Positions 8,969 to 48,176 of a DNA stretch of 64,000 bases are shown here, piece after piece; the first letter of the stretch is position 1; the number at the start of each line of letters is the position of its first letter. The DNA comes from Candidatus Bathyarchaeia archaeon (GTDB taxonomy: Archaea > Thermoproteota > Bathyarchaeia > Bathyarchaeales > Bathycorpusculaceae). The notes under the pieces were generated by a model. The model had not been told where the DNA came from. It searched no databases and saw only the letters and a list, made by a program, of their open reading frames with translations. The position numbers and the translations under genes are program-made. The stretch is from assembly GCA_038727135.1 (NCBI GenBank), contig JAVYWL010000001.1, forward strand, positions 352,001-416,000, read 5' to 3'.

Positions 8969-9403
8969 ATGAAAGGAAAAGCCTTCATCTCCGGACCAAT
9001 CCAAGGCATGGAAACAAAACAATCCTATAGAGAAACCATAAGACGCATCTGCATCCGCTGCGGATACGAGCCAATTGACCCATGGCAACGCGAAAAAATA
9101 ATCTACAAAGGCACAGAAAACGGCTGGTGGCAAAAAGTACCAGCAGCAGACTTCATAAAAAGGGATTTAGAAGACATAGAAAAATGCGACATCCTAATCG
9201 CCTACATGCCAAAACTCTCAGCCGGAACATGCATGGAACTCTTCTACGCAAAAATGAAAGGGAAGAAAACCATATGCATATGCAAAATCAAAAACCCAAG
9301 CCCGTGGATAACCACCCACTCAGACATAATTCTCAAGGAAATTAGACAACTCGAACAAACATTAAAAGCCACACCCTCTTGTGACAAGGTCCCAAAGGCT
9401 TAA
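8969..9403 (+). CDS. Nucleoside 2-deoxyribosyltransferase-like / nucleotide N-hydrolase
   Basis: FISGP, RDLEDIEKCDILIA and SAGTCMEL motifs. Confidence 0.8.
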   Translation: MKGKAFISGPIQGMETKQSYRETIRRICIRCGYEPIDPWQREKIIYKGTENGWWQKVPAADFIKRDLEDIEKCDILIAYMPKLSAGTCMELFYAKMKGKKTICICKIKNPSPWITTHSDIILKEIRQLEQTLKATPSCDKVPKA

Positions 9404-10290: not shown

Positions 10291-10359
10291 AACCTCACAT
10301 AAACTTCAAAGCACACACGCATAGGTAAAAACCGCATTTCATTTTAACATTTACGAAAA

Positions 10360-10432
10360 TGCGGCCGCCGGGATTTGAACCCGGGTCGCCGGCTCGGGAG
10401 GCCGAAGTCCTACCAGGCTAGACTACGGCCGC
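10360..10432 (-). tRNA. tRNA-Gly(CCC), no intron, CCA not encoded
   Basis: Reverse complement is GCGGCCGTAGTCTAGCCTGGTAGGACTTCGGCCTCCCGAGCCGGCGACCCGGGTTCAAATCCCGGCGGCCGCA; cloverleaf with T-loop TTCAAAT and anticodon CCC; TATA-like TTTATATG at 10484-10477. Confidence 0.96.
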
Positions 10433-10503
10433 AACAAAACTAACCTCCTTTTGCTATTGTTGGTTTGTAAAATTAACATATAAAGCCTTTTTTGGAATTC
10501 AGG

Positions 10504-12069: not shown

Positions 12070-12681
12070 TTAATCGTGTGACAGTATTTTTCCGAGAGTG
12101 ATAGAGCATACAGTTGCTATTGAAAATGATCCAATAACAACAATTGGATCGATAACAGGTTGCAGTAGATTCCAAACAAGAATTACATAGGAAAGCACAA
12201 CTATAAAAGCCAGCATGTAAGCTCTTAGTTTTAAAAGTCCCGTTGGATATATTGCCATTTTATGCATGTTAAGAATTGTTTTTAGTTTTTCTTTTGCTTG
12301 TTGTATTTGTTCGTTTGTTGCGAGGGATATGTGGTTTTTGTCGCTGTCTATGAATTTTAGGCTTAGGAGAGCGTAGCGTTGTAGTTCCCATGGTTTGGTT
12401 TTTGGTAGAATTTTTATTACTCCACTTTTCTCCATTTTCTTCAATATTGTTTGGGTTTTGCGGATGAGTTGAACGTCATTTATCTTTTCTTCGCCATGTA
12501 ACCTTTTAATTAGGTCTTTGACGTTTGGAAAATGCAGTTCTAGCTGGAAGCTTGCTATGGTTTTTGATAGTTCATATTGGTACTCGCCTTCTCGTAGGCG
12601 GATGCTGGCGACTTTGTAATCTGAACTTAAGGCTTCTTGTAAAAACTGTATTTCGGTTGGTGTCAGTTTGTGTTCTGACAT
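12070..12681 (-). CDS. Hypothetical protein: soluble, possibly winged-helix N-terminus plus two C-terminal TM helices
   Basis: Likely start ATG12681 (MSEHKLTP); RKTQTILKKMEKSGVIK looks wHTH-like; two hydrophobic segments at the C-terminus. Confidence 0.6.
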   Translation of the reverse strand: MSEHKLTPTEIQFLQEALSSDYKVASIRLREGEYQYELSKTIASFQLELHFPNVKDLIKRLHGEEKINDVQLIRKTQTILKKMEKSGVIKILPKTKPWELQRYALLSLKFIDSDKNHISLATNEQIQQAKEKLKTILNMHKMAIYPTGLLKLRAYMLAFIVVLSYVILVWNLLQPVIDPIVVIGSFSIATVCSITLGKILSHD

Positions 12682-12702
12682 GTCTTTTCCCTTTTTCAAC
12701 AG

Positions 12703-12802
12703 TTTCAATTGAAATAATATAAGGTGAGCATATATAACTGTTTTTAACTTTCAAACGACTGCCTCTATAATTAGGTTTCTGTTCAATATTTTCCATGGAA
12801 AA
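12703..12802. promoter_or_regulatory. Two related palindromes in a divergent promoter (candidate operators)
   Basis: TTTCAATTGAAA (12703-12714) and TTTTCCATGGAAAA (12789-12802); consensus TTTCmATkGAAA. Confidence 0.5.
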
Positions 12803-12848
12803 AACTCATTTTCCTTTAAAGCCTCAAAGTTTACGTTAGGTTGTTAGA

Positions 12849-13253
12849 ATGGGAGTTGTTTTAGAAAAGTTTCCGCTGATTAACAAGGAGTGCGCTTTCA
12901 GTAAGAAGTATAGGAGTTCCTTTGAGATTATAGCGGCTATTCTTGAAGTTGCCATTGAGAAGGTAACTCGCTTTGTTATAGCAAGTCGCTTGAACACAAA
13001 TTACATGCAGCTTCGAAAGTATTTGAGTTATCTGGTTAGGGCGGGTTTTATTGATGTTGAGGTTGGAGGAAAGCAGATTTTGTATAAGACTAGTGAGAAA
13101 GGTTTGGAGTTTTTAAGGTTGTATAACGCTTTATTGGAAATGCTTTTGGAAGGTGCTGAAACACGGGTGCACACCAGTGCTATTTGTGGATGTTTTAGCC
13201 GGCAAACGACAGTGAAAGCGAAAGGGAAAGGCAGGCGGGGTTTCGGCTTATGA
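12849..13253 (+). CDS. Winged-helix transcriptional regulator (archaeal HTH_45/ArnR1-like)
   Basis: YRSSFEIIAAILE...LNTNYMQLRKYLSYLVRAGFI...YKTSEKGLEFL; true start may lie downstream. Confidence 0.8.
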   Translation: MGVVLEKFPLINKECAFSKKYRSSFEIIAAILEVAIEKVTRFVIASRLNTNYMQLRKYLSYLVRAGFIDVEVGGKQILYKTSEKGLEFLRLYNALLEMLLEGAETRVHTSAICGCFSRQTTVKAKGKGRRGFGL

Positions 13254-13297
13254 TTTTCTCCCTTCTCCTTTCGGCGTGAAGTTCGAATCCGCCTGCC
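13219..13297. other. GC-rich stem-loop element with alternative pairing
   Basis: GGCAGGCGG (13230-13238) pairs with CCGCCTGCC (13289-13297); 13219-13231 can alternatively pair with 13261-13273. Confidence 0.45.
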
Positions 13298-13374
13298 CCC
13301 AAACTTTTGTAGTTTCTGTCGGTGAATATTTAAAAGGTACTTTTGTAGATTGTTAGCTATGCGAGGGTTGCTGT

Positions 13375-14457
13375 TTGTCTCGAGAGTTTACTTATGCTGG
13401 TGTTGGTGTTGATAGAAGGCTGAGGGTTAGGGCGAAGAGTGCTTTGCGTTTTTTGAGAAAGACTTATTGTTTTAGTCGCTATGGTGGGGTTGTCTATCTT
13501 CCTTATGGGGTTGTTTTTCCTTTTCGTGAAGGCGTTTATTTGGATCTTGTGATTGAAGGGGTTGGCACTAAGGTTTTGGTAGCCCAGTTAGCCGACAAGT
13601 ATGATACTATTGGTGTTGATGGTGTGGCCATGGCTGTTAATGATGTTATTCGTTCTGGCGCTAAGCCTTTGGCTGTTGTTGATAATATTCATGCTCAGGT
13701 TTCTGATCCGGACTTGGTTAGGGAGTGGATGAAGGGTATTGTGAGGGGGGCTGTTGAGGCTGAGTGTGTTGTTTCTGGCGGTGAGATTGGTGATGTTGCT
13801 GAGTTGATTAAGGGTTTGGTGGAAGGGAAGGGCTTTGACATGGTTTTTGCCACTGTTGGCGAAGTTTCTGCAGACAAGATTATTTATGGTAAGGATTTGG
13901 AGCCCGGTGATGTTGTTGTTGGCTTGAAGAGTTCTGGGATTCACAGTAATGGTGTTACTTTGGCGCGTAGGGTTTTGTTTAAGTGTTGGGGTGGCATGTA
14001 TGAGCCGTTTGATGTTCCAGAGCCTCTTGAAAGAGAGCTAGTTTATGAAGTTTTGGAGCCTACTAGGATTTATGTTAAGCCTTTTCTGAGGGTTGCGGAC
14101 GAGGTTAGAGTCAAGGCGGCTGTGCACATTACTGGTGACGCTTATTTGAAGTTTGATCGTTTGATATTTTTCTCGAGGGGCGTTGGTTTTGAGTTTGACA
14201 ATTTTAAGCCTCAGCCAATTTTTGAGGTGATTCAGAGGGCTGCTTCTGAGCTTGGAGGCAAAATAACTGATGAAGAGATGTTTAAAACGTTTAATATGGG
14301 TTGGGGCTTCGCAATAGTGGTTAACAAGCAGGATGCGGACAAGGCGATTGACGTTTTGGAAAGGTCTGGGGTCCACGCCGAAATCATAGGACATGTGACA
14401 GACACTCGTGGAATCCGAATCTTCTATAAGGGTAAGAGGATAGTTTTGAAAAGGTAG
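13375..14457 (+). CDS. purM: Phosphoribosylformylglycinamidine cyclo-ligase (AIR synthase)
   Basis: TYAGVGVD, EGVGTK, AMAVND, SSGIHSNG, HITG, TFNMGWG. Confidence 0.92.
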   Translation: MSREFTYAGVGVDRRLRVRAKSALRFLRKTYCFSRYGGVVYLPYGVVFPFREGVYLDLVIEGVGTKVLVAQLADKYDTIGVDGVAMAVNDVIRSGAKPLAVVDNIHAQVSDPDLVREWMKGIVRGAVEAECVVSGGEIGDVAELIKGLVEGKGFDMVFATVGEVSADKIIYGKDLEPGDVVVGLKSSGIHSNGVTLARRVLFKCWGGMYEPFDVPEPLERELVYEVLEPTRIYVKPFLRVADEVRVKAAVHITGDAYLKFDRLIFFSRGVGFEFDNFKPQPIFEVIQRAASELGGKITDEEMFKTFNMGWGFAIVVNKQDADKAIDVLERSGVHAEIIGHVTDTRGIRIFYKGKRIVLKR

Positions 14458-14511
14458 GTTTGCCTTTTCTGTGGTGAAAGCGTTTAAATCGGCTCATGTG
14501 AAATTTAGCCT

Positions 14512-14763
14512 ATGAAATATCGTTTGAAAATTGAGGTTGGCTTGAAGCCAGGGCACAGCGATCCGGAAGGTGAAACCACAGCCCGTTTGCTTAGGGAGCT
14601 TGGCTATAATGTTGAGAGGGTGGGCGTCAGCAAGGTTTACAATGTTGTTGTTTGGGCTGATTCCCAAGAGGAAGCCTTAGCGAAGGCTGAGGATATGTGT
14701 AAGAGACTTTTGGCTAATCCAACAAAGGACAATTATACCATATTGGTTGAGGGGGAGAAATGA
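14512..14763 (+). CDS. purS: FGAM synthase subunit PurS
   Basis: LKPGHSDPEG, LLANP; located between purM and purL. Confidence 0.92.
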   Translation: MKYRLKIEVGLKPGHSDPEGETTARLLRELGYNVERVGVSKVYNVVVWADSQEEALAKAEDMCKRLLANPTKDNYTILVEGEK

Positions 14764-17150
14764 ACGGCGGCAGCCTTTACATCCGCAGGGATACGCCTTT
14801 CCCGCTTTTTGAAATAGCCTTGGCACAAGCTTCCGACCAGCAGTTGCTAAATGTTAGTCTTGAGCTTGGTTTGGGTTTAAGCTTGGATGAGATGAGGACT
14901 GTTCAGAAATACTTTAGGGAGAAGGGTAGAAATCCCACGGATGTTGAGCTTCAAACCATTGGACAGACTTGGTCTGAGCATTGCTTCCATAAGACCTTCA
15001 AGGGCACAGTAAAATTTGGTGGAAAAGAGATTAACAATCTTTTCAAAACTTATATTGCGAGGGTGACGGAGGAGCTTAATCCCCGCTGGTGTTTTTCGGT
15101 TTTTGAGGACAACGCTGGAATAATTCGCTTTGAAAAAGGTTATGGCATAGCCGTGAAGGTTGAAACTCATAATCATCCGTCGGCTATTGAGCCTTTTGGT
15201 GGGGCAGCTACTGGTGTTGGCGGCGTTATACGAGATATTTTAGGAGTTTGGGCTGACCCCATTGCATGTACCGATGTTTTAGGTTTTGGTCCGCTGGACT
15301 ACCCTTATGAAAGGCTTCCGCCCGGGGTTAAGCACCCAAAATACTTGTATATGGGCGTGGTTGCCGGCATTGGAAGTTACGGCAATAACATGGGGATTCC
15401 AACGGTTAATGGTGCCATATGCTTTGACGAGAGTTATGTGGGCAACGTGGTTGTCTACTGTGGATGTGTCGGGCTTCTGCCACTGAAAAAGTTTAGGAGA
15501 AACGCCAAACCCGGCGACTTAATTGTTTTGGCTGGAGGAAAAACTGGAAGGGACGGCATTCACGGGGTTACTTTTGCCTCTGCTGAACTAACAGAAAAGT
15601 CCGAGGAGATTTCTAGACCAGCCGTTCAAATTGCAAACCCCATCGAGGAGGAGAAGCTTAAGAGGGCGATAATTGCCATCAGAGATGCTGAGTTGGCTTC
15701 AGCCATAACAGACCTTGGCGGAGGCGGCTTATCCTCTGCTGTTGGCGAAACCGCCAAACGCTTCGGATGCGGCGCCGTTGTGGAGCTTGACAAAGTGCCG
15801 CTGAAATATCCAGGGTTGGCTCCTTGGGAAATCTACATCTCCGAATCCCAAGAAAGGATGCTTTTGGCTGCTCCACCAGAAAACTTGGCGCGGATGCTGG
15901 AGATTTTTGAGGGTGAAAATGTCGAAGCCACTGTTATTGGGCGGTATACTGAAGACAAGGTTTTGCGCATTTATTATAGCGGAGAAAAAGTTGCAGAGCT
16001 AGACATCCCATTCCTTTTTGAGCCGCCAAGAACTGTTAGGAAAGCCGAGTATAAGCCACCAACTTTTGCGGAGCCAAACTTTCCAGAGCCAAAAGACTTG
16101 ACCAGCGTTGTTTTGAGACTCCTTTCCTCTCCCAATATTGCAAGTAAAGAGAGCGTCATCAGAACCTATGACCATGAAGTTAAGGGGAACACTGTTCTAA
16201 AGCCTTTGCATGGGGATTTTGGCGGCCCCAATGATGCCGCTGTCCTGAAGCCGTTAAAGGACTCTTGGCGGGGTTTGGTTATTTCTTGTGGCATAAACCC
16301 CCAATATGGGAAGGTTGACCCTTATTGGATGGCGGCTTCAGCTATAGACGAGGCGATAAGGAACAATGTGGCTGTGGGCGGCAGAAGAATCGCTCTGCTT
16401 GACAATTTTACTTGGGGAAACCCTGAAAAACCTGATAGGCTCGGGAGCCTAGTTAGGGCCTGTGAGGCATGTTACGATTTTGCTAAAGCCTTTGGAACGC
16501 CCTTCGTTTCTGGGAAGGACAGCCTATACAACGAGTCTCCTCTTGGTCCGGTCACGCCGACGCTGTTGATAACGGCTATTGGGATAATTCCAGACATCCG
16601 CGTGGCAGTTTCGTTGGATGTTAAGGAGCCTGGCAGTTCCATTTACATTGTTGGTAAAACCTACCGTGAGTTGGGTGGTTCAGAGTATTATAGACTAATG
16701 GGGGTTGTTGGAAAAACCGTGCCCAAGGTGCGTGTCAACCATGCGAGGAAAGCGTTTAAGGCATTGACCATGGCTATTGATCATGGCTTAGTTAATGCTT
16801 GCCATGACTTGTCAGAGGGGGGTTTGGCTGTTGCGGCGGCGGAGATGGCTTTTTCTGGTGGCTATGGCTTGGAGCTGGATTTGCGGCTTGTCCCAACGGA
16901 GGGCTTAAAAAGAAATGACTTTATTCTCTTCGCCGAGTCCAATAGCCGCTTCCTCGTGGAAGTTCCAGAAAAATGTGAGGAGGATTTTGAGGCTGTCATG
17001 CGTGGGTGTGCCTTTGCAAAAATTGGAAGGGTGACGGCTACGCCAACGCTGTGTGTCTATGGCTTGGATAGGAATGTTGTGGTAGATGCGTCTTTAAGCG
17101 ATTTGCTGACTTGGTGGAAACGTACCCTCAGTGGCAGTGGTGAAGACTAA
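14760..17150 (+). CDS. purL: FGAM synthase subunit PurL
   Basis: WSEHCFHK, KVETHNHPSAIEPFGGAATGVGGVIRD, SESQERM, HDLSEGG. Confidence 0.96.
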   Translation: MNGGSLYIRRDTPFPLFEIALAQASDQQLLNVSLELGLGLSLDEMRTVQKYFREKGRNPTDVELQTIGQTWSEHCFHKTFKGTVKFGGKEINNLFKTYIARVTEELNPRWCFSVFEDNAGIIRFEKGYGIAVKVETHNHPSAIEPFGGAATGVGGVIRDILGVWADPIACTDVLGFGPLDYPYERLPPGVKHPKYLYMGVVAGIGSYGNNMGIPTVNGAICFDESYVGNVVVYCGCVGLLPLKKFRRNAKPGDLIVLAGGKTGRDGIHGVTFASAELTEKSEEISRPAVQIANPIEEEKLKRAIIAIRDAELASAITDLGGGGLSSAVGETAKRFGCGAVVELDKVPLKYPGLAPWEIYISESQERMLLAAPPENLARMLEIFEGENVEATVIGRYTEDKVLRIYYSGEKVAELDIPFLFEPPRTVRKAEYKPPTFAEPNFPEPKDLTSVVLRLLSSPNIASKESVIRTYDHEVKGNTVLKPLHGDFGGPNDAAVLKPLKDSWRGLVISCGINPQYGKVDPYWMAASAIDEAIRNNVAVGGRRIALLDNFTWGNPEKPDRLGSLVRACEACYDFAKAFGTPFVSGKDSLYNESPLGPVTPTLLITAIGIIPDIRVAVSLDVKEPGSSIYIVGKTYRELGGSEYYRLMGVVGKTVPKVRVNHARKAFKALTMAIDHGLVNACHDLSEGGLAVAAAEMAFSGGYGLELDLRLVPTEGLKRNDFILFAESNSRFLVEVPEKCEEDFEAVMRGCAFAKIGRVTATPTLCVYGLDRNVVVDASLSDLLTWWKRTLSGSGED

Positions 17151-37833: not shown

Positions 37834-38784
37834 TTAAGAAATTCTAATTAACTTTTCAGCCAAACCTGCAAGCATTTCTCGATACTCTAAAAGCCTTTTA
37901 CGGGCATCCTCTAGCGTGATATCCGAGAACCTTATGATATCATTTGGTTTGGCTTGCCCAAGCCTATCCAAGTCTGGAGTTGTTACAGCTGCTATTTTGG
38001 GATAGCCTCCGGTTGTTTGGGCATCCCTCATAATTGTTATGGGTTTTCCATCTTTGGGTACTTGAATTGCTCCAGGCAAGAGGGCGTCCGAAACTATGTC
38101 AGCCTTTCCCTTATGCTCTATTGTCGGTCCTTCGAGGCGGTAACCCATGCGGTCAGAATCTATTGTAACCTTATAAGAGTTTGAAAGGAAAGTTTTAATG
38201 CCTCTTTCAGTGAACATATCTGCCTGTGGTCCCAAAACAACATGCACAGTGAAACTATCCTTAAAGTGCGGCACGAGGTTTTCTGGCATTCTAAAAACAA
38301 CATCAATGGGTGGAACGCTGAACCCTTCAATTATGTCCCCGACCTTTAGTTGTCTGCCATCTATTCCACCGAAGCGTCCGCGGACATAAGTTGACCTGCT
38401 CCCGAGAACTACGGGCGTGTTTATTCCTCCCCTAATGGAGAGGTAGCATCTGCACCCGCTTTCCACTTTTCCAACAGAAACAACGTCTCCCTTACGCACA
38501 GTTAATGTTTGCCACATGGGCGCTTCCTCACCATTGATTTCCACAGAAATTCTTCCTCCAGTTAAGGCAATCTGAGTATCCACCAACACTTGAAGTTCTG
38601 GTCCTGTGATGGTTATCTCCAAACATGCATCATTAGGGTTGTTTCCAACCAGCAGATTTGCCGCCACCATTGAAAACGAGTCCATGGCGCCAGAAATAGG
38701 GACTCCATATTTAAGGTAGCCATATCTACCCAAGTCTTGCACTGTTGTAAAAAATCCGGGCTTTAAAACTTGAAAAACTTCCAT
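37834..38784 (-). CDS. pxpC: 5-oxoprolinase/allophanate hydrolase subunit C (PxpC/KipA)
   Basis: TTVQDLGR, SGAMD, LGSRST, SDRMGYRL, DAQTTGGYPKI. Confidence 0.9.
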   Translation of the reverse strand: MEVFQVLKPGFFTTVQDLGRYGYLKYGVPISGAMDSFSMVAANLLVGNNPNDACLEITITGPELQVLVDTQIALTGGRISVEINGEEAPMWQTLTVRKGDVVSVGKVESGCRCYLSIRGGINTPVVLGSRSTYVRGRFGGIDGRQLKVGDIIEGFSVPPIDVVFRMPENLVPHFKDSFTVHVVLGPQADMFTERGIKTFLSNSYKVTIDSDRMGYRLEGPTIEHKGKADIVSDALLPGAIQVPKDGKPITIMRDAQTTGGYPKIAAVTTPDLDRLGQAKPNDIIRFSDITLEDARKRLLEYREMLAGLAEKLIRIS

Positions 38785-38786
38785 GC

Positions 38787-39537
38787 CTACAATTCCTCAA
38801 ATTGCAGTTTATAAGCGCCTACCCTAACAAGTTCCTCAATTCTCCTGTAATCCTCCTCTGAAACTGGCTCGAATTTAACAATATCTCCAGGTTTTAGTAA
38901 GGCTGGAGGCTGCTTTTGCGGATCAAAAAGTCTGATTGGTGTCCTGCCTATTATCCGCCACCCCCCCAGGAGCCTCGCATGGATAAATGCCTGTCTGTCT
39001 TTCTGCAATGCCAACAGAACCTGCTGGCACTTTTAGACGCGGAGTTTCAAGACGTGGTGTTGCAATTTCTTCTGGAACGTCACCTAGGTATGGGAAGCCG
39101 GCAACAAAGCCTATCATGTAAACCCTATAGTCTTTCCCGGAATGGTATCTGACAACTTGTTCCTCGGTTAACCTGTGATACTGAGCCACATAACCCAGGT
39201 CTGGTCCATAGGCGCCTCCGTAAATGACTGGGACAATAAGCTTTCTCCCCCCTGTTTTTGCCTGTTTGCTTTCCAACGCCTCTTCAATCTCTTTAATGCG
39301 CACAGCAAGTTGATCGTAAGTTATTTCAGCCGGATTATAACGAACAAGCAGAGACCTATAGGTGGGGACAAACTCTTCAACGCCTTTTATGTCAGCTTTT
39401 AAAAGAGCCTCATTTAAGGCGATGACTTTGCTGTTCACCGCCAAATCAATTACATCACCAAACTCAACTATTAGAGCATGGTCGCCGAAGGGAAGATAAC
39501 GTGCAGAAGGGTAAACCGAGCCTTTCATGGGCATCAT
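38787..39537 (-). pseudogene. pxpB: PxpB/KipI subunit interrupted by a +1 frameshift in a G7 run
   Basis: Frame 1 reads ...GSVGIAERQTGIYPCEAPGG; the conserved GGWRIIGRTP...LLKPGD continues in another frame; C7 run at 38961-38967 on the + strand. Confidence 0.85.
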
Positions 39538-40310
39538 TAGATGAATTGGCTTACTGGTTTAACCTCTATTCCAGCTTTAACAAGCCCTTTTCTTAACGCC
39601 TCAGCTAATTTTACAGCTTTTGGCGTGTCGCCATGAACACAAACTGTGTGAACTTGTCCGAGCCCCACAACTTCACCGCTAAAAGCTTCAACTACGCCTT
39701 CCTTTACGGCTTGTATGGCTCGCTTAACAACCTTTTCCGGCTCCTCAATTACAGCGCCGGGTTCCCCCCTTGAAACTAGGCTTCCATCTGGGTTATAGGC
39801 TCTGTCCGCAAAAAACTCGTAGGCAACCCGTAATCCAGCGTTAGCAGCCACCTCAGCCATCGCGGATTTCGGCGGTGCAAAAACGATTAAGTTCCTATCC
39901 AGCTCTGAGACAGCTTCAGCTATAGCCTTGGAAAGCTCTCTATCCTTTAACGCCGTGTTATACATCGCACCGTGAGGCTTTACATGTTGAAGACTTAAGC
40001 CGAAAACTTTGACAAATTCGAGAAGCGCTCCAACCTGGTAAATGATGTAGTTTTTTGCCTCTTCACTTGATAGTTGCATTTCTCTTCTTCCAAACCCCAT
40101 TAGATCCGGGTATCCAGGATGAGCCCCCACGGCGACTCCATACTTCTTTGCCAAAGCCACCGTCCGCGCCATTATCGAAGGGTCGCCCGCGTGAAAACCA
40201 CACGCAACATTAGCAGAAGTTATGTAGGGCATTATTTCCTCGTCATTCCCAATCCTGAATGCTCCATAGCTTTCGCCTAAATCACAGTTTATATCAACCA
40301 GAAACCTCAA
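39537..40310 (-). CDS. pxpA: 5-oxoprolinase subunit A (LamB/YcsF)
   Basis: DINCDLGES, ANVACGFHAGD, GAHPGYPD..GFGRR, HVKPHGA, FADRAY, CVHGD; start taken as TTG40310. Confidence 0.93.
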   Translation of the reverse strand: MRFLVDINCDLGESYGAFRIGNDEEIMPYITSANVACGFHAGDPSIMARTVALAKKYGVAVGAHPGYPDLMGFGRREMQLSSEEAKNYIIYQVGALLEFVKVFGLSLQHVKPHGAMYNTALKDRELSKAIAEAVSELDRNLIVFAPPKSAMAEVAANAGLRVAYEFFADRAYNPDGSLVSRGEPGAVIEEPEKVVKRAIQAVKEGVVEAFSGEVVGLGQVHTVCVHGDTPKAVKLAEALRKGLVKAGIEVKPVSQFI

Positions 40311-40335
40311 ACCAACACTTCCTAAAGCATTAAAA

Positions 40336-41361
40336 TCATAGGTATTTCCGCATATCCTCAACCGCAGCCGAGGGAACTGGCAAATCTTTCATGGTCAGCA
40401 AGCCAGCCGGAGCCTTTAGCACTTTTGGAATAGAGTTTACAATTATTGCCACTGTGCCCGCGTCCCCGTGGACGCACGGCTGAATTTTCTGCTTGATTGT
40501 TGGAACGCCCGTGATCGTTATGGCGTCGTACTCTTCTTTCGCCCCGATATAGGCTTGAAAGTCTAGAACTATAACCTCTTTGCCCTTCATTATTCCCTTC
40601 GCCGTCTGCCTCAAACCTGCAACTTTCCCAGCTTCAACCTTTATGAAGTCGCTTTTTACTGGTTCTTTGGCTATTACCGGTTCGACGGGTTCAGCCTTTA
40701 TTTCATCAAGTTCCCATGCCAGCGCATCTGCAATCATCGCAATAGACTGCTCAAGTCCCACATGTCCAGTTATTTCTCCTTTCGCAATTTTTTGTTTAAA
40801 TTCTTCTACTGTTAGGCCTGCGCCTATCTTTTTCTGGAAGGGTAAACGTCTTGTTGCAGCGTTCATAACTCTGACGGCTTCGATTTTCTCTATTTTTTGA
40901 CATGCCGCTGTCAGTGTTATCACAAGAGTGTCCATTAGGAAACCTGGGTTTATTCCTGTGCCTAAGACTGTCACGTCATGTTTTTTGGCCAACTTGTCCA
41001 GTTCCTTTGCTATTTTTGGCTCTGAATAGTAGGGGTACGAGAGTTCTTCGCATGTCGATATAACATTAACACCATGTTTGATTATAGAAGCTATTTGAGG
41101 GTAAGTATCTTTAAGATAAGATGATGTAGCGTGAATGACTATCTCTGGCTTCGTTTTTGAAAGTGTGGCGTCAACATCGCTGGAAACTGTTATGCCAAGT
41201 TCCCTGTTTAAGCCTAAAATTTCGCCTAAATCCTTGCCTACCTTATCCTTTGCAACATCGATTGCGCCAACTATTTTTACGCCTCTCTTTTCGAGAAGAG
41301 CCTTTGCTATTAAACTTCCAACAGCGCCAACCCCGTATAAAACAACTTTAACCTCTTCCAT
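40336..41361 (-). CDS. NAD(P)-dependent amine dehydrogenase (2,4-diaminopentanoate dehydrogenase/Ord-like, DapB-like fold)
   Basis: YGVGAVG, STCEEL, LGTGINPGFLMD, GHVGLEQS, GDAGT..IVNSIP. Confidence 0.8.
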   Translation of the reverse strand: MEEVKVVLYGVGAVGSLIAKALLEKRGVKIVGAIDVAKDKVGKDLGEILGLNRELGITVSSDVDATLSKTKPEIVIHATSSYLKDTYPQIASIIKHGVNVISTCEELSYPYYSEPKIAKELDKLAKKHDVTVLGTGINPGFLMDTLVITLTAACQKIEKIEAVRVMNAATRRLPFQKKIGAGLTVEEFKQKIAKGEITGHVGLEQSIAMIADALAWELDEIKAEPVEPVIAKEPVKSDFIKVEAGKVAGLRQTAKGIMKGKEVIVLDFQAYIGAKEEYDAITITGVPTIKQKIQPCVHGDAGTVAIIVNSIPKVLKAPAGLLTMKDLPVPSAAVEDMRKYL

Positions 41362-41435
41362 AGGACGCTCCTCACGTTTTTATGGTTTATTTGGTTGTGA
41401 TATCTATAAAAGAAGTTTGGCTTACGATTTAAAAC

Positions 41436-41451
41436 CTTTACATTTGTAAAG
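41436..41451. promoter_or_regulatory. Inverted repeat in a divergent promoter
   Basis: CTTTACA-TT-TGTAAAG directly before TATA-like TTTATAT (41452-41458). Confidence 0.45.
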
Positions 41452-41493
41452 TTTATATTTATGAGCTTTCCCCAATAATAGGGGGCGGCTTAA

Positions 41494-42936
41494 TTGAGCG
41501 CCGGAAAAACTGTGACTTATAAAGAAGTTCTCGCCGAATATCCAGATGCAGAGAAAATTAAGTTCTGCTTTGAATGCGGAGTATGCACGGCAAGCTGCCC
41601 CATGACAGAACTTCTAAAAGGGGAATACAATCCGAGGAATATCCTTGAAAAGATTTTTTTAAACATCGAAGAAGCTTTTGTTTCAGATGAGATTTGGCTC
41701 TGCGCTTGGTGTTATCGCTGCTATAGGCACTGTCCTCAAGCATTAAAACCGCCAGAAATATTCCTCTACACTCGAAAGTTCGCAGTTAAAGCTGGATATA
41801 GACAGGCATTCGAAAATGCCATCCATAAGATTGTCAAAGTATCTCCCCTTCCCTTGGTTACGATTTGTGCCTGTTTTCATCCGGAGCGCGCAGGCTTAGA
41901 CTTAAGCAAGGTCATAAAAGAAGCTGAAAAACTGAGGAAGGAATTTTTAGAAGAGAAAAAAGGGAAAATTAAGGCGGAACCAGCAAAAAAGAAAGTTGCG
42001 GTTATTGGTTCTGGACCTGCGGGGCTCACAGTTGCTCATGATTTAACCTTGAAAAACTATGAAGTTACGGTTTTTGAGGCTATGAAAGAGCCTGGTGGCA
42101 TGTTGAGGAAGTGTTTGCCGGCCTATCGTCTTCCAAGGGAACTTTTAGACATGGACATACAAGCGTTGAAGGACCTCGGCGTGGAAATAAAGACTGGTGT
42201 GGCGGTCGGTAAAGATGTTGATTTTAGCAGTTTATGGGATCTAGGCTATGATGCCATTTTCGTTGGCGTTGGTGCCAATAAAGGGCAGCACTTGAAAATT
42301 GAGGGCGCTGATTTAGAAGGGGTAGTGCATGCTCTAGACTTTCTCTGGATGTTTAACTCTGGAATAACGCCAAATGTTAGGGGTAAACGTGTTGCCATCA
42401 TTGGCGGTGGAAATGTTGCAGTTGACTCCGCAAGAACTGCCCTTAAACATGGAGCTAGGGAGGCGACTATTTTTTACCGAAGGTCTAAAGAGGAGATGCC
42501 CGCAAACCCGTGGGAAGTTAAAGAGGCAGAAAATGAGGGCGTAAAAATTGAGTTTTTAGTCTCTCCGAAGAGAATCTTGGGTGACGATAAAAGGGTTTCC
42601 GCTGTTGAGTTTGTTCGGATGAGGCTAGGCGAGTTAGACGAGACCGGAAGAAGAAAACCGATCCCCATTGAAGGTTCTGAATTTGTTAAAGAGGCGGACA
42701 TGGTGGTTTTGGCGATAGGCGAATTCCCAGACCTCTATTTTCTGCCTAAGGAAATTGAATTGAATGAAGACGGAACAATTTGGGTTAACCCGTTAACTAT
42801 GGAGACAACCCTTGAAGGTGTTTTTGCCGGAGGGGACTCTGTGACTGGTCCAGCCTCAATAATTGAGGCTATATGTGCCGGAAGGATTGCCGCCTTTTCA
42901 ATTGATTGTTATCTAAAGTCTTTGGGTCTAAGGTGA
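41494..42936 (+). CDS. HdrC-like Fe-S domain fused to a GltD/NfnB-like FAD/NAD(P) oxidoreductase
   Basis: CFECGVCTASCP and CAWCYRCYRHCP; then GSGPAGL, PGGML..PAYRLP, GGGNVAVD, YRRS, GVFAGGD. Confidence 0.85.
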   Translation: MSAGKTVTYKEVLAEYPDAEKIKFCFECGVCTASCPMTELLKGEYNPRNILEKIFLNIEEAFVSDEIWLCAWCYRCYRHCPQALKPPEIFLYTRKFAVKAGYRQAFENAIHKIVKVSPLPLVTICACFHPERAGLDLSKVIKEAEKLRKEFLEEKKGKIKAEPAKKKVAVIGSGPAGLTVAHDLTLKNYEVTVFEAMKEPGGMLRKCLPAYRLPRELLDMDIQALKDLGVEIKTGVAVGKDVDFSSLWDLGYDAIFVGVGANKGQHLKIEGADLEGVVHALDFLWMFNSGITPNVRGKRVAIIGGGNVAVDSARTALKHGAREATIFYRRSKEEMPANPWEVKEAENEGVKIEFLVSPKRILGDDKRVSAVEFVRMRLGELDETGRRKPIPIEGSEFVKEADMVVLAIGEFPDLYFLPKEIELNEDGTIWVNPLTMETTLEGVFAGGDSVTGPASIIEAICAGRIAAFSIDCYLKSLGLR

Positions 42937-42943
42937 TTGGAAA

Positions 42944-45349
42944 ATGGCTGGAGAGGAAATACGTATAGGGGTTTATGTTTGCCACTGCGGTTTGAATATT
43001 GCGGGCTCTGTTGATTGTAAAGAGGTCGCAGAGTTCGCTTCCACGCTTCCAAACGTTGTTTTGGCGAGAGATTATCGATATACATGTTCAAACCAAGGAC
43101 AGGAACTCATAAAGAATAATATCAGGGAGTATAGGCTTAATCGTGTGGTTGTTGCTTCATGCTCTCCCCGCCTCCATGAACCTACATTCCGAAAAGTGTG
43201 CGAGGAGGCCGGGTTAAACAAGTACCTTTTTGAGATGGCTAACATACGGGAACAGTGCAGCTGGGTCCACCTCCATGATAGAAAGGCGGCGACTGAAAAG
43301 GCTAAAGATCTTGTGAAAATGGCTGTGGCTAAGGCGGCCCTATTAAAGCCAGCCAAGGAAATTGAAGTGCCGATTATAAGAAAGGCACTTGTAATTGGCG
43401 GCGGCGTTGCAGGAATTCAAGCAGCATTGGACCTCGCTAACACTGGTTATAAAGTTTATTTGGTGGAGAGGGAGCCGAGCATCGGCGGTATGATGGCGAG
43501 AATAGATAAAACTTTTCCAACAATGGACTGTTCAATATGCATTCTTGCCCCAAAAATGTCTGATGTGGGGCATCATCCAAACATTGAACTATTAACCAAC
43601 AGTGAAGTTATCGATGTAAAGGGGTATATCGGCAACTTCCGAGTAAAAGTTTTAAAAAAGCCGCGTTATGTGAAGGAAGACTGCTCAGCGTGTGGTGAGT
43701 GCTCAAAAGTTTGTCCCATGACAGCGCCGAACGAGTTTGATGCTGGATTAGCTCTAAGACGCGCCATTTACACGCCTTTTGCACAGGCAGTTCCGTCAAC
43801 CTACATAATTGACATGAGCCTATGCCTAAATAAAGACGGCGTAATGGTATGCGACAAATGCATTAAAGCCTGCGAAAGGCAAGCCATAGACTTCACAATG
43901 AAACCTGAAACCGTAGAACTAGAAGTAGGAACGATAATAGTGGCGACGGGAGCGGACGTTTTCGACCCATCCGCGCTTCCTCAGTATGGTTATGGCAAAT
44001 ATTTGAATGTGATTACATCGCTTGAATTTGAAAGGCTAATTAATGCTGGCGGTCCGTCTGGAGGGCGGCTTGTTAGGCCTGGCGACATGAAGGTTCCGAA
44101 GCGTGTGGCTTTTATACAGTGTGTTGGCTCTCGCTCCAATAGGACCGGACGAACCTACTGCAGCAATGTTTGCTGCATGAACACCATAAAAGACAGCCTC
44201 CTCATCAAAGAGCACTGGCCTGAAACTGAAATCTACGTCTTTTACGTTGACATTCGTGCATATGGAAAGGGGTTCGAAGACCTATACAAGAGGGCTAAAA
44301 AGGAAGGCGTAATATTCATCAGGGGGCTTCCAGCAGAAATAATTGAGGATAAGAAGACTCGAAACCTCTGGCTCATAGGTGAAAATACGCTCCTAAAAGA
44401 GTCTTACAAAATGAACTTTGACATGGTTATTCTATCCGTTGGCCTGGAGCCGCGGAAAGATAGCGAAGTAATACAGCGACTGTTGACCCTTTCAAGGACG
44501 CAAGACGGATTTTTCATGGAAGCCCATCCAAAACTCCGACCAGTGGACGCTGCAACCGGAGGCATATTCTTCGCCGGATGCGCTGAGGCTCCAAAGGACA
44601 TAAAGGACAGCGTAACACAAGCCAGCGCGGCTGCAGCCAGAGCTGGCATACTAATGGCTAATGGTAAAGTTACGGTTGAGGCCATTACGCCAATTTTAGA
44701 TGTGGAAAAGTGCAAGGCTTGCGGGCTTTGCACAAAGGTTTGCCCCTACAACGCGATAACTCTTAACAAAGAGCTTAAACGCATTGAAATTGTTGAGGCT
44801 GCTTGTGGAGGATGCGGAACATGTGCTGCAGAATGCCCATCCGACGCATTAACCCAGAACCACTTCACTGATGAGCAGATAATAGCTCAAATTGACGCCG
44901 TTACAGAATATGATGCCGACAAGAAAATTGTAGCTTTCTGCTGCAATTGGTGCGCTTATGCAGGTGCGGATTTCGCCGGAGTCAGTAGGATGCAGTATCC
45001 GCCAAACGTCCGAATAATTAGAACCATGTGCTCGGGAAGGGTTGCTCCAAAATTTGTTGAAAGAGCCTTCGCAAGAGGAGCTGCCGCAGTTCTGGTGGCT
45101 GGCTGCCACCCAGGAGACTGCCACTACATTAATGCTAACTATCATACTCAAATACGTGTGGAACGCTTATGGAAAAAGATGGAACAGAACGGTCTACGCA
45201 AGGAGAGGCTTCAGCTTTTATGGGTTTCAGCAGCTGAAGGAGAAAGATTTACCTCAAAAATTTATGAAATGCAAAAAATTGTGGAAAGTATAACTTCAGA
45301 GGAAATAGAACATGCCAAAAAAGTTTTTTCAAAAGCTGGAGGAGCTTAA
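42944..45349 (+). CDS. hdrA: Heterodisulfide reductase subunit A fused to a C-terminal MvhD domain
   Basis: GVYVCHCG, ASCSP, ANIREQCSW, GGGVAG, KTFPTMDCSICI, QCVGSR, CSNVCC; MvhD part FCCNWCAYAGAD, MCSGRV, GCHPGDCHY. Confidence 0.95.
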   Translation: MAGEEIRIGVYVCHCGLNIAGSVDCKEVAEFASTLPNVVLARDYRYTCSNQGQELIKNNIREYRLNRVVVASCSPRLHEPTFRKVCEEAGLNKYLFEMANIREQCSWVHLHDRKAATEKAKDLVKMAVAKAALLKPAKEIEVPIIRKALVIGGGVAGIQAALDLANTGYKVYLVEREPSIGGMMARIDKTFPTMDCSICILAPKMSDVGHHPNIELLTNSEVIDVKGYIGNFRVKVLKKPRYVKEDCSACGECSKVCPMTAPNEFDAGLALRRAIYTPFAQAVPSTYIIDMSLCLNKDGVMVCDKCIKACERQAIDFTMKPETVELEVGTIIVATGADVFDPSALPQYGYGKYLNVITSLEFERLINAGGPSGGRLVRPGDMKVPKRVAFIQCVGSRSNRTGRTYCSNVCCMNTIKDSLLIKEHWPETEIYVFYVDIRAYGKGFEDLYKRAKKEGVIFIRGLPAEIIEDKKTRNLWLIGENTLLKESYKMNFDMVILSVGLEPRKDSEVIQRLLTLSRTQDGFFMEAHPKLRPVDAATGGIFFAGCAEAPKDIKDSVTQASAAAARAGILMANGKVTVEAITPILDVEKCKACGLCTKVCPYNAITLNKELKRIEIVEAACGGCGTCAAECPSDALTQNHFTDEQIIAQIDAVTEYDADKKIVAFCCNWCAYAGADFAGVSRMQYPPNVRIIRTMCSGRVAPKFVERAFARGAAAVLVAGCHPGDCHYINANYHTQIRVERLWKKMEQNGLRKERLQLLWVSAAEGERFTSKIYEMQKIVESITSEEIEHAKKVFSKAGGA

Positions 45350-45350
45350 G

Positions 45351-45629
45351 ATGCCTGAAAGGCTTTGGAGAACCCCACTAGACATCGAGAAGGTTTCAAG
45401 GCCGAAAGCTGAAATCTACGTATTAAAAGACCAGTGCAAGGGTTGCGGCTTCTGCATTCAATTCTGTCCCAGAAAGGTTCTAGAGGAATCTGACGAGATT
45501 AATGCCAGAGGGGTTCATCCTCCAAGAGTTGTTGATGAAAAAAGCTGCATACTATGTAGCTTCTGCACGGCAATATGCCCAGACTTCGCAATTTTTGTTA
45601 AAGAAAAACATTGTAAGGATGGATGTTAG
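45351..45629 (+). CDS. 2-oxoacid:ferredoxin oxidoreductase delta (ferredoxin) subunit
   Basis: CKGCGFCIQFCP and CILCSFCTAICP; start ATG45351 with GGAGG upstream. Confidence 0.9.
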   Translation: MPERLWRTPLDIEKVSRPKAEIYVLKDQCKGCGFCIQFCPRKVLEESDEINARGVHPPRVVDEKSCILCSFCTAICPDFAIFVKEKHCKDGC

Positions 45630-46784
45630 ATGACTGATGAAAAAACGGTCTTGACTGGCGTCCATTTTATGAGCGGTGACATAGCATGCGCAGAAGGTGC
45701 CATTGCCGCGGGATGCCGATTTTTCGCCGGATATCCCATAACGCCTGCAACAGAAATAGCCGAGCATATTGCAGCTAGAATGCCAAAAGTGGGCGGAATT
45801 TACATCCAAATGGAAGACGAAATAGCCTCAATAGCTGCCGTGATAGGCGCATCCTATGCGGGTTTAAAGGCTATGACGGCGACTTCTGGGCCAGGCTTTA
45901 GCTTGATGCAGGAGAATATAGGCTTGGCTGCCATGACGGAAGCCCCATGCGTGATTGTTGACGTAATGAGGGGCGGTCCCAGCACTGGACAGCCAACCCT
46001 TCCGGGGCAGCAGGATGTCATGCAGGCCAAATGGGGTTCTCATGGCGATTATGAAATCATTGCTTTGGCGCCTTCTTCTGTTCAGGAAATGTTTGACTTG
46101 ACAATCGAGGCTTTCAACATGGCGGAAACCTATCGCGTTCCAACATTGGTGATGGCTGACGAAGTTGTCGCCCACATGTGGGAAAAAGTTGTGATCCCGC
46201 CAGCTGAGGAAATAAGGATAGTTAACCGCAAAAAGCCCAACACGTCACCGGATAAGTATATGCCCTTCATGCCAGACGACGACTTAGTTCCGCCAATGGC
46301 TTGTTTCGGCGAAGGCTTCCGCTTTCATGCAACAGGCCTAACCCACGACGAGTATGGCTATCCACGCACCCAAAGCTCAGAGGTTCAAATGAGGCTTGTG
46401 CAGAGGCTATGCGACAAGATAAGGAAGAACGCTGACAAAATTATCCGCGTTGAAGAACAATTGCTGGACGATGCCGAAATAGTGGTTTTTGCCTATGGAA
46501 TAGTTGCAAGGGCAGCCCTAAGCGCGGTAAGAAAAGCAAGGCAGCAGGGTATAAAAGCCGGCCTTCTCCGCCCAATCACCTTATGGCCCTTCCCGGAAAA
46601 GCAAGTTGCAAAGGCTGCTGAAAAAGCCAAAGCCATAATTGTTCCAGAAATGAACTGCGGGCAAATGGTAAAGGAGGTAGAAAGAGCCGCGAAAGGAACG
46701 CCTGTTTATCATATATCAAAGTTGGGTGAGGAGCCGCATACGCCGATGGAGATCCTCGAATTTATAAGGAGGTATTGCAAATGA
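45630..46784 (+). CDS. korA: 2-oxoacid:ferredoxin oxidoreductase alpha subunit (KorA-like)
   Basis: GYPITPATE, QMEDE, TATSGPGFSLMQE, RGGPSTG. Confidence 0.92.
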   Translation: MTDEKTVLTGVHFMSGDIACAEGAIAAGCRFFAGYPITPATEIAEHIAARMPKVGGIYIQMEDEIASIAAVIGASYAGLKAMTATSGPGFSLMQENIGLAAMTEAPCVIVDVMRGGPSTGQPTLPGQQDVMQAKWGSHGDYEIIALAPSSVQEMFDLTIEAFNMAETYRVPTLVMADEVVAHMWEKVVIPPAEEIRIVNRKKPNTSPDKYMPFMPDDDLVPPMACFGEGFRFHATGLTHDEYGYPRTQSSEVQMRLVQRLCDKIRKNADKIIRVEEQLLDDAEIVVFAYGIVARAALSAVRKARQQGIKAGLLRPITLWPFPEKQVAKAAEKAKAIIVPEMNCGQMVKEVERAAKGTPVYHISKLGEEPHTPMEILEFIRRYCK

Positions 46785-47620
46785 CGGAAGCCGTTGAGCA
46801 GCATCCCCTTTCAAAATATTTGAGAGCTGCCATGATGCCCCACATATGGTGCTCCGGATGCGGAAACGGCATAATACTCAATGCTTTTGTGCAAGCGCTT
46901 GATGAGCTGCAAGTAAATCTTGACAAGCTTGTCGTTGTTTCAGGGATAGGCTGTATTGGAAGGGCTGCCGGCTACACGAATGTTGATTCCTTTCACACGA
47001 CTCACGGGCGCCCCATCGCCTTCGCAACGGGTGTTAAACTCGCAAATCCAGAGCTGGAAGTTGTCGTTATAAGCGGCGACGGCGATCTCTTCGCCATAGG
47101 AGGAAACCACTTCATCCACGCAGCAAGAAGAAACATTGGAATTAAGGTAATATGCGCCAACAACTTTAACTATGGAATGACTGGCGGACAGGTTGGACCA
47201 ACAACACCGCTAGACGCCTTTACAACGACAACACCTTATGGGAACATAGAGCATCCCTTCAACTTGGTTCATTTGGCAGCGGCAGCCGGCGCCACTTATG
47301 TGGCGAGGTGGACAACCCTTCACGTGCGAATGCTTACAATGTCCATTAAGAAACTTCTACAAAGGAAGGGTTTTTCCTTCATAGAGGTTATATCGCCATG
47401 CCCGGAAATCTATGGACGTCATAACAAGATGCGAACGGGACTTGAAATGATGGAGTGGTTTAGGAAGGCGTCGGTTATAGCCAACTTCTCAGATCCGGCT
47501 AAGGCAGAAATAACCCCAGAAAGAATAGTTGTCGGCGAATTCGTGGACCTCCAAAAGCCAACCTATGAGGAGTTACTCCACAATAAAATGGCGCAAATAA
47601 TGAAAGAAGGCGAAAAATAG
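46781..47620 (+). CDS. korB: 2-oxoacid:ferredoxin oxidoreductase beta subunit (KorB-like)
   Basis: WCSGCG, SGIGC, HTTHGR, GDGD (TPP motif), YGMTGGQ. Confidence 0.92.
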   Translation: MTEAVEQHPLSKYLRAAMMPHIWCSGCGNGIILNAFVQALDELQVNLDKLVVVSGIGCIGRAAGYTNVDSFHTTHGRPIAFATGVKLANPELEVVVISGDGDLFAIGGNHFIHAARRNIGIKVICANNFNYGMTGGQVGPTTPLDAFTTTTPYGNIEHPFNLVHLAAAAGATYVARWTTLHVRMLTMSIKKLLQRKGFSFIEVISPCPEIYGRHNKMRTGLEMMEWFRKASVIANFSDPAKAEITPERIVVGEFVDLQKPTYEELLHNKMAQIMKEGEK

Positions 47621-47630
47621 GTGAGGCGTG

Positions 47631-48176
47631 ATGCGTATTGAAATAAGATTTGCGGGTTTCGGCGGACAAGGAATAATTAAGTCTGGAATCATGGTGGCTA
47701 CAGCCGCATGTATATATGGCGGAAAGCACGCTGTGCAAACGCAGTCTTATGGACCAGAGTCGAGGGGCGGCGCGTGCCGTTCCGAAGTTGTGATAGCGGA
47801 TGATGAAATTGACTTTCCAAAAGTCACCGAGCCAGACATCTTGGTAGTGATGTCCCAGCATGCCTACAACGAGTACGCGGAAACGGTGAGAAAGGGGGGA
47901 ACAATAATACTTGACCCGGACATGATTCCCAACGAGAGGGAAATTGAAGGTGTAAAAGTTTTCCGCGTTCCAGCCACAAGAATGGCTGAGGAGCTTGGAA
48001 GGAGGATTGTTGCAAATGTTGTCATGCTTGGGGCTTTTGCAGCAATAACTGGAATAGTGAACAGAGAAGCCCTAAAAGAGTCGATTAAGGCTAATGTTCC
48101 AAAAGAAACAGAGGAATTAAACCTAAAAGCCTTTGAGATAGGCTACGAATATGGCAAAAAGGTTGTTGAAGGCTAG
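47631..48176 (+). CDS. 2-oxoacid:ferredoxin oxidoreductase gamma subunit
   Basis: AGFGGQG, SYGPESRGG, NVVMLGA. Confidence 0.92.
   Translation: MRIEIRFAGFGGQGIIKSGIMVATAACIYGGKHAVQTQSYGPESRGGACRSEVVIADDEIDFPKVTEPDILVVMSQHAYNEYAETVRKGGTIILDPDMIPNEREIEGVKVFRVPATRMAEELGRRIVANVVMLGAFAAITGIVNREALKESIKANVPKETEELNLKAFEIGYEYGKKVVEG

Follow-up and report, generated by a model that had tools for sequence, protein, structure and literature searches.

The window analysed here is a 64,000-nt stretch of a Candidatus Bathyarchaeia archaeon genome (contig C1, positions 352001-416000, in an assembly of 1.55 Mb on seven contigs that is 94.7% complete), and the feature under study is an operon of six co-oriented genes on its plus strand (41494-48176; positions are those of the window unless a contig is named). 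According to the open reading frame (ORF) listing and a domain scan, the genes encode, in order, a fusion flavoprotein, HdrA2, and KorD, KorA, KorB and KorC, the subunits of a 2-oxoacid:ferredoxin oxidoreductase; the six packed genes described at these coordinates in the initial annotation are thus present in the ORF listing. Intergenic gaps are 7 nt (fusion-hdrA), 0 nt (korD-korA) and 7 nt (korB-korC), and korA and korB overlap by 10 nt. There is also a 38-nt overlap of hdrA and korD, which becomes a 1-nt gap if korD begins at a conserved methionine (Met14, position 45351). The operon points to an enzyme complex, as yet unstudied at the bench, in an archaeon of sediments and hot springs.

The first gene (41494..42936, TTG start) encodes a protein of 480 amino acids (aa) in which an HdrC-like domain is joined to an NfnL/GltD-like flavoprotein, as judged from domain matches and an AlphaFold2 (AF2) model. 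The HdrC-type domain, for two [4Fe-4S] clusters, occupies residues 17-105 (41542..41808) and contains two CxxCxxCxxxCP motifs (C25, C28, C31, C35 and C70, C73, C76, C80). It is matched by Fer4_8 (residues 23-82, E = 1.3e-8), by the HdrC model TIGR03290 (residues 22-116, E = 1.4e-19), and by the HdrC chain of PDB 5odc, a solved MvhAGD-HdrABC complex (5odc_C; residues 20-102, E = 1.7e-17). The protein scores 70.5 bits against TIGR03290 (cut-off 160) and 60.2 bits against NF041779 (cut-off 350), both below the curated HdrC level. Only model positions 1-95 of 144 in TIGR03290, and residues 29-109 of 184 in 5odc_C, are matched, so that the C-terminal part of HdrC is missing from the fusion protein, and the remainder beyond the HdrC core is an NfnL-type body. 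The domain can be aligned to the HdrC paralogues of the same genome, and none of its eight cysteines varies among 72 fusion sequences from archaea and bacteria (60 archaeal rows, including this one, and 12 bacterial).

A helical linker follows (residues 106-165, 41809..41988), which corresponds in alignment to the latter half of the NfnB/GltD iron-sulfur (Fe-S) domain, although the cluster cysteines are gone. Where canonical NfnB reads CGRVCPx4Cx3C, the linker reads ICACFHP, and only C127, H129 and P130 reach 90% conservation among the 72 sequences; the domain scan found no Fer4_20 in the protein at E <= 0.01. The FAD- and NADP(H)-binding domain (residues 166-476, 41989..42921) is matched by Pyr_redox_2 at residues 166-461 (E = 4.8e-30; 105 bits, cut-off 26.1), and among solved chains its sequence is nearest to that of 9n5u_A (E = 4.6e-92), which is NfnA from an archaeal Nfn-Bfu enzyme. 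Against the gltA model TIGR01316 the protein scores 297 bits, under the curated cut-off of 471.75. The AF2 model, built from the 72-row alignment, has a mean predicted local confidence (pLDDT) of 91.2 and a predicted template modelling (pTM) score of 0.90. It superposes on the large subunit of Pyrococcus furiosus NfnI (5jca_L) over residues 8-476 (Z 33.8; rmsd 3.0 Å; 393 aligned residues), and from this overlay the HdrC-like domain is predicted to lie at the two-cluster site of NfnL, beside the FAD. The profiles, the alignment and the model overlay therefore agree with the domain reading given in the initial annotation (an HdrC-type core, a cysteine-poor NfnB/GltD remnant and an intact FAD/NADPH body), and the strings quoted there, SPLPLVTICACFHP, GGGNVA and YRRS, are all found in the translation. 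The motifs GGGNVA and YRRS suggest NADP(H) rather than NAD(H) as the nucleotide, by the GxGxxA rule set out in the cited part of PMC12054007.

Database searches with the fusion protein returned 7793 matches at E <= 1e-10 (homologues of about 478 aa). The best 120 of these are mostly full-length, with 61-99% identity (in 110 of them the match spans 98% or more of the query), and bear only the names 'FAD-dependent oxidoreductase' or 'GltD-like'. Bacterial homologues, from Desulfobacterales and others, are 35-39% identical and longer (about 580 aa). Behind the HdrC-like domain they retain Fer4_20 positions 30-108, with three to five of the Fer4_20 cysteines by alignment, and since part of Fer4_20 and some of its cysteines remain, they look like an intermediate form.

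The second gene (42944..45349) encodes HdrA2, an 801-aa HdrA fused to MvhD, which scores 1279 bits against NF040770 (cut-off 1100). Its MvhD/FlpD domain spans residues 662-782 (44927..45289; PF02662, E = 1.6e-48), and the Fe-S cysteines are conserved across a 49-sequence alignment. The domain scan found no GltD insertion within the HdrA2 polypeptide, unlike type III HdrA.

The remaining four genes encode all four subunits of a 2-oxoacid:ferredoxin oxidoreductase, with sites for thiamine pyrophosphate (TPP) and Fe-S clusters by sequence. KorD (45312..45629, with Met14 at 45351 the likely true start) is the delta subunit, with two [4Fe-4S] sites; it matches OGOR_delta at E = 5.6e-19, under the curated cut-off, all 30 sequences compared have its eight cysteines, and its orthologues begin at the Met14 position. 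Past the end of the OGOR_delta model, KorD has a CxxGC tail (45609-45629), both cysteines of which occur in 24 of the 30 orthologues, and which might bind an additional metal or make an additional contact. KorA, the alpha subunit (45630..46784), contains POR_N and PFOR_II domains and scores 596 bits against PRK08659 (cut-off 411). KorB, the TPP-binding beta subunit (46775..47620), matches TPP_enzyme_C (E = 2e-33) and scores 273 bits against PRK09628, under its cut-off of 364. KorC, the gamma subunit (47628..48176), scores 245 bits against PRK08537, over its cut-off of 235, and a POR domain is present in the kor set. The substrate may be 2-oxoglutarate, the hints being that the best-scoring beta and delta models are 2-oxoglutarate types and that 5-oxoprolinase genes lie nearby. 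Outside the window, the genome has a second KorABC set (C1:440942-443431; 55, 46 and 39% identical) without a delta subunit gene, so that KorD is particular to the Hdr-linked kor set. In a complex prediction for HdrA2, KorD and residues 17-105 of the fusion protein (the HdrC-like domain), in which KorD was the only partner scored, the values were 0.36, 0.23 and 0.14; their median of 0.23 is under the mark of 0.32 and speaks neither for nor against binding.

The arrangement was compared across 80 loci, one genome per species, of which 63 are archaeal-type (fusion identity 49-96%). In 56 of the 60 of these that can be evaluated, the gene immediately downstream of the fusion gene, and on its strand, is hdrA2, and korABC comes next in 37 of 39 (36 detected by script and one more, L052, whose kor genes the script overlooked although they are visible); the arrangement is thus conserved among relatives, as the initial annotation needed it to be. 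Packing is tight throughout, with median gaps of 28 nt for fusion-hdrA, 0 nt for korD-korA, -10 nt for korA-korB and 2 nt for korB-korC. The hdrA-korD gap, measured from the conserved methionine, lies between -2 and 20 nt in 44 loci, with a median of 2 nt. Conservation is much stronger in HdrA2 than in the fusion protein: of the 44 neighbouring archaeal orthologues aligned, 41 are 77-98% identical to HdrA2 (the other three, L069, L077 and L080, are at 70-78%), and fusion identity in the same loci is 53-96%.

The partners of the pair vary. In L077, a locus from a bin labelled Hadarchaeota (4481-14474), Mtd and Ftr genes precede the pair and FwdD-, FwdA- and FwdC-type genes follow it, with no kor genes, and in five other loci (L069, L072, L074, L078 and L079) a polyferredoxin adjoins it. 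In a Desulfobacterales locus (L093, 161-9740) the genes encode a TetR protein, an Old Yellow Enzyme (OYE)-type flavoprotein (Oxidored_FMN plus Pyr_redox_2), a short HdrA, HdrA::MvhD and the fusion; no CCG protein is present among the eight genes scanned there. For OYE-type aryl-CoA reductases, the natural low-potential donor is given as not known in the cited part of PMC13365417. Since the kor genes are replaced elsewhere, the constant core is the fusion plus HdrA::MvhD, and the variable partner a low-potential Fe-S enzyme or conduit. Two further loci, from an Anaerolineales bin (L060) and a Krumholzibacteriaceae bin (L064), hold Bathyarchaeia-like copies of the operon with 54% fusion identity (HdrA is 80% identical in L064), and these contigs are probably mis-binned.

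A profile search of the genome found no hdrB or mvhAG within the window, in agreement with the initial annotation; all 10 CCG-domain matches (C1:27-56 kb, C1:89 kb and C2:246 kb; five CCG proteins genome-wide) and all NiFe hydrogenase genes (C1:26 kb and C1:43 kb; two mvhAG sets) lie outside it. The genome-wide search for hdrB and mvhAG that was proposed there did find both elsewhere, each with its own neighbouring hdr partners. The stretch C1:25-35 kb encodes MvhA, MvhG, HdrB, HdrC, MvhD, a 1010-aa HdrA and an MvhD-HTH (helix-turn-helix) protein, together with a 580-aa GltD-like protein that has an intact Fer4_20 and a C-terminal ferredoxin domain. At C1:38-45 kb are hdrB, hdrC, hdrA::mvhD, mvhA and mvhG, and at C1:50-58 kb a canonical NfnB/NfnA pair, a polyferredoxin-MvhD protein, an HdrD-like protein and another HdrA::MvhD. 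No partner gene of the NfnA/NfnS or GltB type is found in the operon under study, and the only NfnA-like gene is the one beside canonical NfnB (C1:50-52 kb). Three of the CCG genes were looked at, and the two HdrB genes each adjoin their own HdrC and HdrA, while the HdrD-like gene adjoins HdrA::MvhD. An HdrA2 paralogue (56% identical) lies beside a polyferredoxin at C4:12-15 kb (11900-15300).

The genes on C1 form a 33-kb 'Hdr island' (C1:25000-58500) which, with the paralogue on C4, brings the genome to five HdrA genes in 1.55 Mb. The HdrA::MvhD paralogue at C1:39867-42275 has one TAG within its genome-search match; its 859-aa ORF is open, so the TAG is probably upstream of the true start. 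No match to FrhB (FrhB_C), Mtd or CofD was found in the 94.7%-complete genome, and F420 was accordingly rejected as a third partner in this organism.

Upstream of the operon, and divergent from it, is a gene for a DAP_DH-type NAD(P)-dependent amino-acid/amine dehydrogenase (40336..41361, minus strand; DAP_DH_C, E = 6.2e-55), followed by the 5-oxoprolinase genes pxpA, pxpB and pxpC (37834..40361, minus strand; LamB_YcsF, CT_C_D and CT_A_B matches). Of 51 evaluable loci, 31 have the dehydrogenase gene divergent from the fusion gene and within 500 nt of it, and 5-oxoprolinase genes are upstream in many related Bathyarchaeia loci. As genomic context only, these neighbours fit a role in the breakdown of glutamate and other amino acids, and so fit the link to amino-acid catabolism drawn in the initial annotation.

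Transcription of the locus is seen in a hot-spring metatranscriptome (X6), about 5% of which was read. It yielded 97 reads (32 at least 99% alike and 50 between 95 and 99% alike), which leave no bin between 41505 and 47223 empty and have the orientation that plus-strand RNA would give in the usual stranded library. Reads on the upstream gene have the opposite sense, and the divergent intergenic region of 132 nt (41362..41493) separates the two. The plus strand is transcribed at low depth, and a single transcript is not implied by the reads.

In canonical HdrA complexes, as established by the solved structures, electrons from a mid-potential donor enter through MvhD, the high-potential exit is through HdrC, and ferredoxin is served at the inserted ferredoxin domain. 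The reading that we favour, though tentatively, is that the products of the six genes make up a single redox unit, an HdrA complex that is thiol-free, in which NADP+ takes the place of the heterodisulfide, KorDABC is the electron donor through MvhD, and ferredoxin is the low-potential partner. HdrA2 keeps its flavin, all of its Fe-S sites and the fused MvhD domain, and the single fusion protein would stand in place of the HdrBC pair, with its HdrC-type domain docked where HdrC normally binds. From there its two [4Fe-4S] clusters would lead to the NfnL/GltD-type FAD, which would exchange hydride with NADP(H). KorABC would convert a 2-oxoacid, probably 2-oxoglutarate derived from glutamate, to acyl-CoA and CO2; single electrons would leave through KorD and enter HdrA2 at the [2Fe-2S] cluster of MvhD, as electrons from hydrogenase or formate dehydrogenase do. 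The HdrA flavin would then split each pair, sending one electron downhill through the HdrC-type clusters to NADP+ and handing the second, at the inserted ferredoxin domain, to ferredoxin. Overall, this would amount to 2 2-oxoacid + 2 CoA + NADP+ + 2 Fd(ox) -> 2 acyl-CoA + 2 CO2 + NADPH + 2 Fd(red). The potentials concerned are about -500 mV for the 2-oxoacid, -320 mV for NADP+ and -420 to -500 mV for ferredoxin. The reaction is downhill oxidatively; being near equilibrium at high CO2 and acyl-CoA, it could run both ways, and the backward run would halve the ferredoxin cost of reductive carboxylation.

We favour this reading because the domains, the invariant Fe-S ligands, the model overlay, the gene order and the tight packing all agree; because the pair of fusion and HdrA::MvhD recurs with other low-potential enzymes (Fwd, polyferredoxin) and in bacteria; and because the restriction of KorD to the Hdr-linked set, the NADP(H) motifs, the neighbouring genes and the strand-consistent RNA point the same way. 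Its topology is also the simplest, in that every partner is within the operon. The interpretation offered in the initial annotation, a ferredoxin/NAD(P) bifurcating or confurcating complex coupled to 2-oxoacid oxidation, is partly supported, by the domains, the conservation and the amino-acid context; formation of the complex, the arm taken by each partner, and bifurcation are what we infer.

Several observations weigh against the reading. Binding among the six proteins is a prediction, and KorD could sit on either the MvhD side or the ferredoxin side of HdrA. RNA depth is only 0.2-3, X6 has no reads over 47224-48126 (korC), and zero reads came from X4 and X5, two of the three raw-read runs. 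Four of the 60 evaluable loci have no hdrA downstream of the fusion gene (in L078 and L079 it is upstream and divergent, and in L072 and L074 there is none), and two of the 39 (L076 and L077) have no kor genes. Three further points, namely the position of the CO2-reducing enzyme in methanogen supercomplexes, the thermodynamics of the 2-oxoacid and the presence of HdrB homologues in the genome, each favour a different explanation, and are taken up with it below.

In methanogen supercomplexes the CO2-reducing enzyme is carried on the ferredoxin side of HdrA, which favours a topology with KorD and the oxidoreductase on the ferredoxin arm, NADP(H) on the HdrC arm, and MvhD serving an outside mid-potential partner, most simply MvhAG. 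In fermentation, such an enzyme would merge low-potential electrons from the 2-oxoacid with those of NADPH into H2, as a NiFe analogue of the confurcating hydrogenases; given H2, the reverse reaction would yield NADPH and reductive carboxylation. Deamination plus decarboxylation of glutamate would give one NAD(P)H and one low-potential pair, a 1:1 input for confurcation that fits the neighbouring dehydrogenase and 5-oxoprolinase genes, and the Fwd genes and polyferredoxins found with the pair are of the kind that sit on the ferredoxin side in methanogens. The genome does have two mvhAG sets, but both belong to their own hdr clusters, and no MvhA or MvhG gene occurs in the flanks of any of the 80 loci. 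Nor is NiFe hydrogenase commoner in genomes that bear the fusion: among 200 other genomes of the class, 14 have a full-length fusion orthologue, and 11 of these 14 have the hydrogenase (the three lacking it are only 76-78% complete), vs 168 of 201 in the class sample. F420, with no FrhB, Mtd or CofD match in the genome, is improbable as the third partner. Overall, we consider this topology unlikely. The potentials given above raise a different objection, since a 2-oxoacid at about -500 mV reduces both ferredoxin and NADP+ uncoupled, and bifurcation is thermodynamically unneeded. HdrA2 and the fusion might then be simply an electron wire, and the enzyme a 2-oxoacid:NADP+ oxidoreductase. Such an enzyme would resemble phenylglyoxylate:NAD+ oxidoreductase, which has five subunits, the extra one being GltD-like, and GltD-type modules are plain entry or exit points for NAD(P)H in many enzymes (the solved relatives of the fusion include glutamate synthase and dihydropyrimidine dehydrogenase as well as Nfn-Bfu). 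Pad-type enzymes, however, work without HdrA, and an 801-residue HdrA2 that retains the FAD site and the inserted ferredoxin and MvhD domains at 77-98% identity (41 of 44 orthologues), while the fusion protein beside it falls to as little as 53%, would be costly for a wire. We therefore regard this explanation as improbable.

A similarly low probability is given to an enzyme of two proteins, in which the fusion and HdrA2 would form an NADP(H)/ferredoxin redox balancer with an unknown third substrate, linked to Kor only by co-transcription and free ferredoxin. The core pair does occur without kor genes in L076, L077, L069, L072, L074, L078 and L079 and in bacteria, but the hdrA-korD junction is held to the few nucleotides described above in all 44 loci, and KorD is confined to the Hdr-linked kor set in this genome. 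Lastly, an HdrB or HdrD-like protein encoded elsewhere might join HdrA2 and complete a canonical complex, so that a disulfide is still reduced and the fusion is an added NADPH input. Gene content allows this: in addition to the five CCG proteins here, CCG proteins occur in 14 of the 14 other fusion-bearing genomes, none of those searched being without one, and hdrA2 of Methanosarcina is not adjacent to hdrB2C2. In one locus (L057, 6591-7736), a co-oriented HdrD-like (CCG) gene is directly upstream of the fusion gene. This is the only adjacent case among the 63 archaeal loci, two more having separate hdrBC clusters nearby, and in the present genome the two HdrB genes and the HdrD-like gene have partners of their own (three of the five CCG genes; the others are at C1:89 kb and C2:246 kb). 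Moreover, the C-terminal part of HdrC that is missing from the fusion is the part that holds HdrB. The figures of 14 of 14, and of 11 of 14 vs 168 of 201, mean that gene content is compatible with a borrowed HdrB and gives no support to a hydrogenase partner, but on the arguments from gene partners and the missing HdrC C-terminus we judge a borrowed HdrB to be very improbable.

If the thiol-free complex with KorDABC as donor is real, it would add a new set of partners to flavin-based electron bifurcation, and would explain the many HdrA copies in non-methanogens that have no known disulfide. More doubtfully, it may represent a new class of HdrA bifurcating enzymes without thiol chemistry, in which CO2-releasing low-potential dehydrogenases (the 2-oxoacid oxidoreductase here, formylmethanofuran dehydrogenase in a relative) take the place of hydrogenase or formate dehydrogenase, and NADP+ that of the heterodisulfide. 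Bathyarchaeia rank with the most abundant archaea of anoxic sediments, and their balance of ferredoxin, NADPH and carbon has been guessed mostly from gene lists; the complex would be a direct and testable link between carbon, from amino acids or CO2, and the two main redox pools. Run backward, it would allow an autotroph to meet the cost of reductive carboxylation with one NADPH replacing half of the reduced ferredoxin. In this view, the Desulfobacterales pair may be the source of low-potential electrons that is still missing for OYE-type reductases.

A literature search, which did not extend to supplements, found no description of an HdrC::GltD fusion or of an hdrA-kor operon. A GltD/NfnB domain joined to an Hdr system is described in the cited parts of reports on HdrL (PMC2702500), HdrA-NfnB of ANME-1 (PMC9012536) and type III HdrA (PMC12054007), and the operon resembles HdrL and type III HdrA in tying an NAD(P)H domain of this type to Hdr. 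In type III HdrA, the GltD domain is inserted within the HdrA ferredoxin domain, and HdrC, HdrB and MvhGA are kept (PMC12054007, in part). We confirmed this layout in relatives of the class (e.g., an 1124-aa protein in L109), and two long reading frames with a fusion-like stretch (G105 and G064), considered as three-way fusions, were rejected as type III HdrA. Here, unlike in HdrL and type III HdrA, the GltD-type body is on HdrC, the other arm, and there is no HdrB in the operon.

Residues 115-476 of the fusion resemble NfnSL (NfnAB) and the NfnA of Nfn-Bfu/Stn (5jca, 4ylf, 9n5u, 9bov and 8oh5) in both fold and sequence. The fusion differs from NfnSL in that its N-terminal Fe-S domain is HdrC-like by sequence and no NfnS partner adjoins it, canonical NfnAB being encoded elsewhere in the genome. 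The Kor set is like other four-subunit KorABCD enzymes in having all subunits, with KorA and KorC over curated cut-offs, and is unlike them in sharing one operon with hdrA2 and in the CxxGC tail of KorD.

By NF040770, HdrA2 is of the same HdrA::MvhD subtype as in the HdrA2B2C2 of Methanosarcina acetivorans, which uses HdrB2C2, heterodisulfide and F420H2 (PMC5296606, in the part cited); here, no HdrB lies beside hdrA2, and the genome has no FrhB, Mtd or CofD match. The MvhAGD-HdrABC and FdhAB-MvhD-HdrABC complexes of methanogens (5odc and 7bkb) share with the present system the HdrA FAD, the inserted and C-terminal ferredoxin domains, the [2Fe-2S] site of MvhD, and an adjacent HdrC-type protein with two [4Fe-4S] clusters. 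Unlike those complexes, the operon is without HdrB, hydrogenase and formate dehydrogenase; instead, its HdrC core and an NADP(H) flavoprotein are joined in one protein, and a 2-oxoacid:ferredoxin oxidoreductase is encoded alongside.

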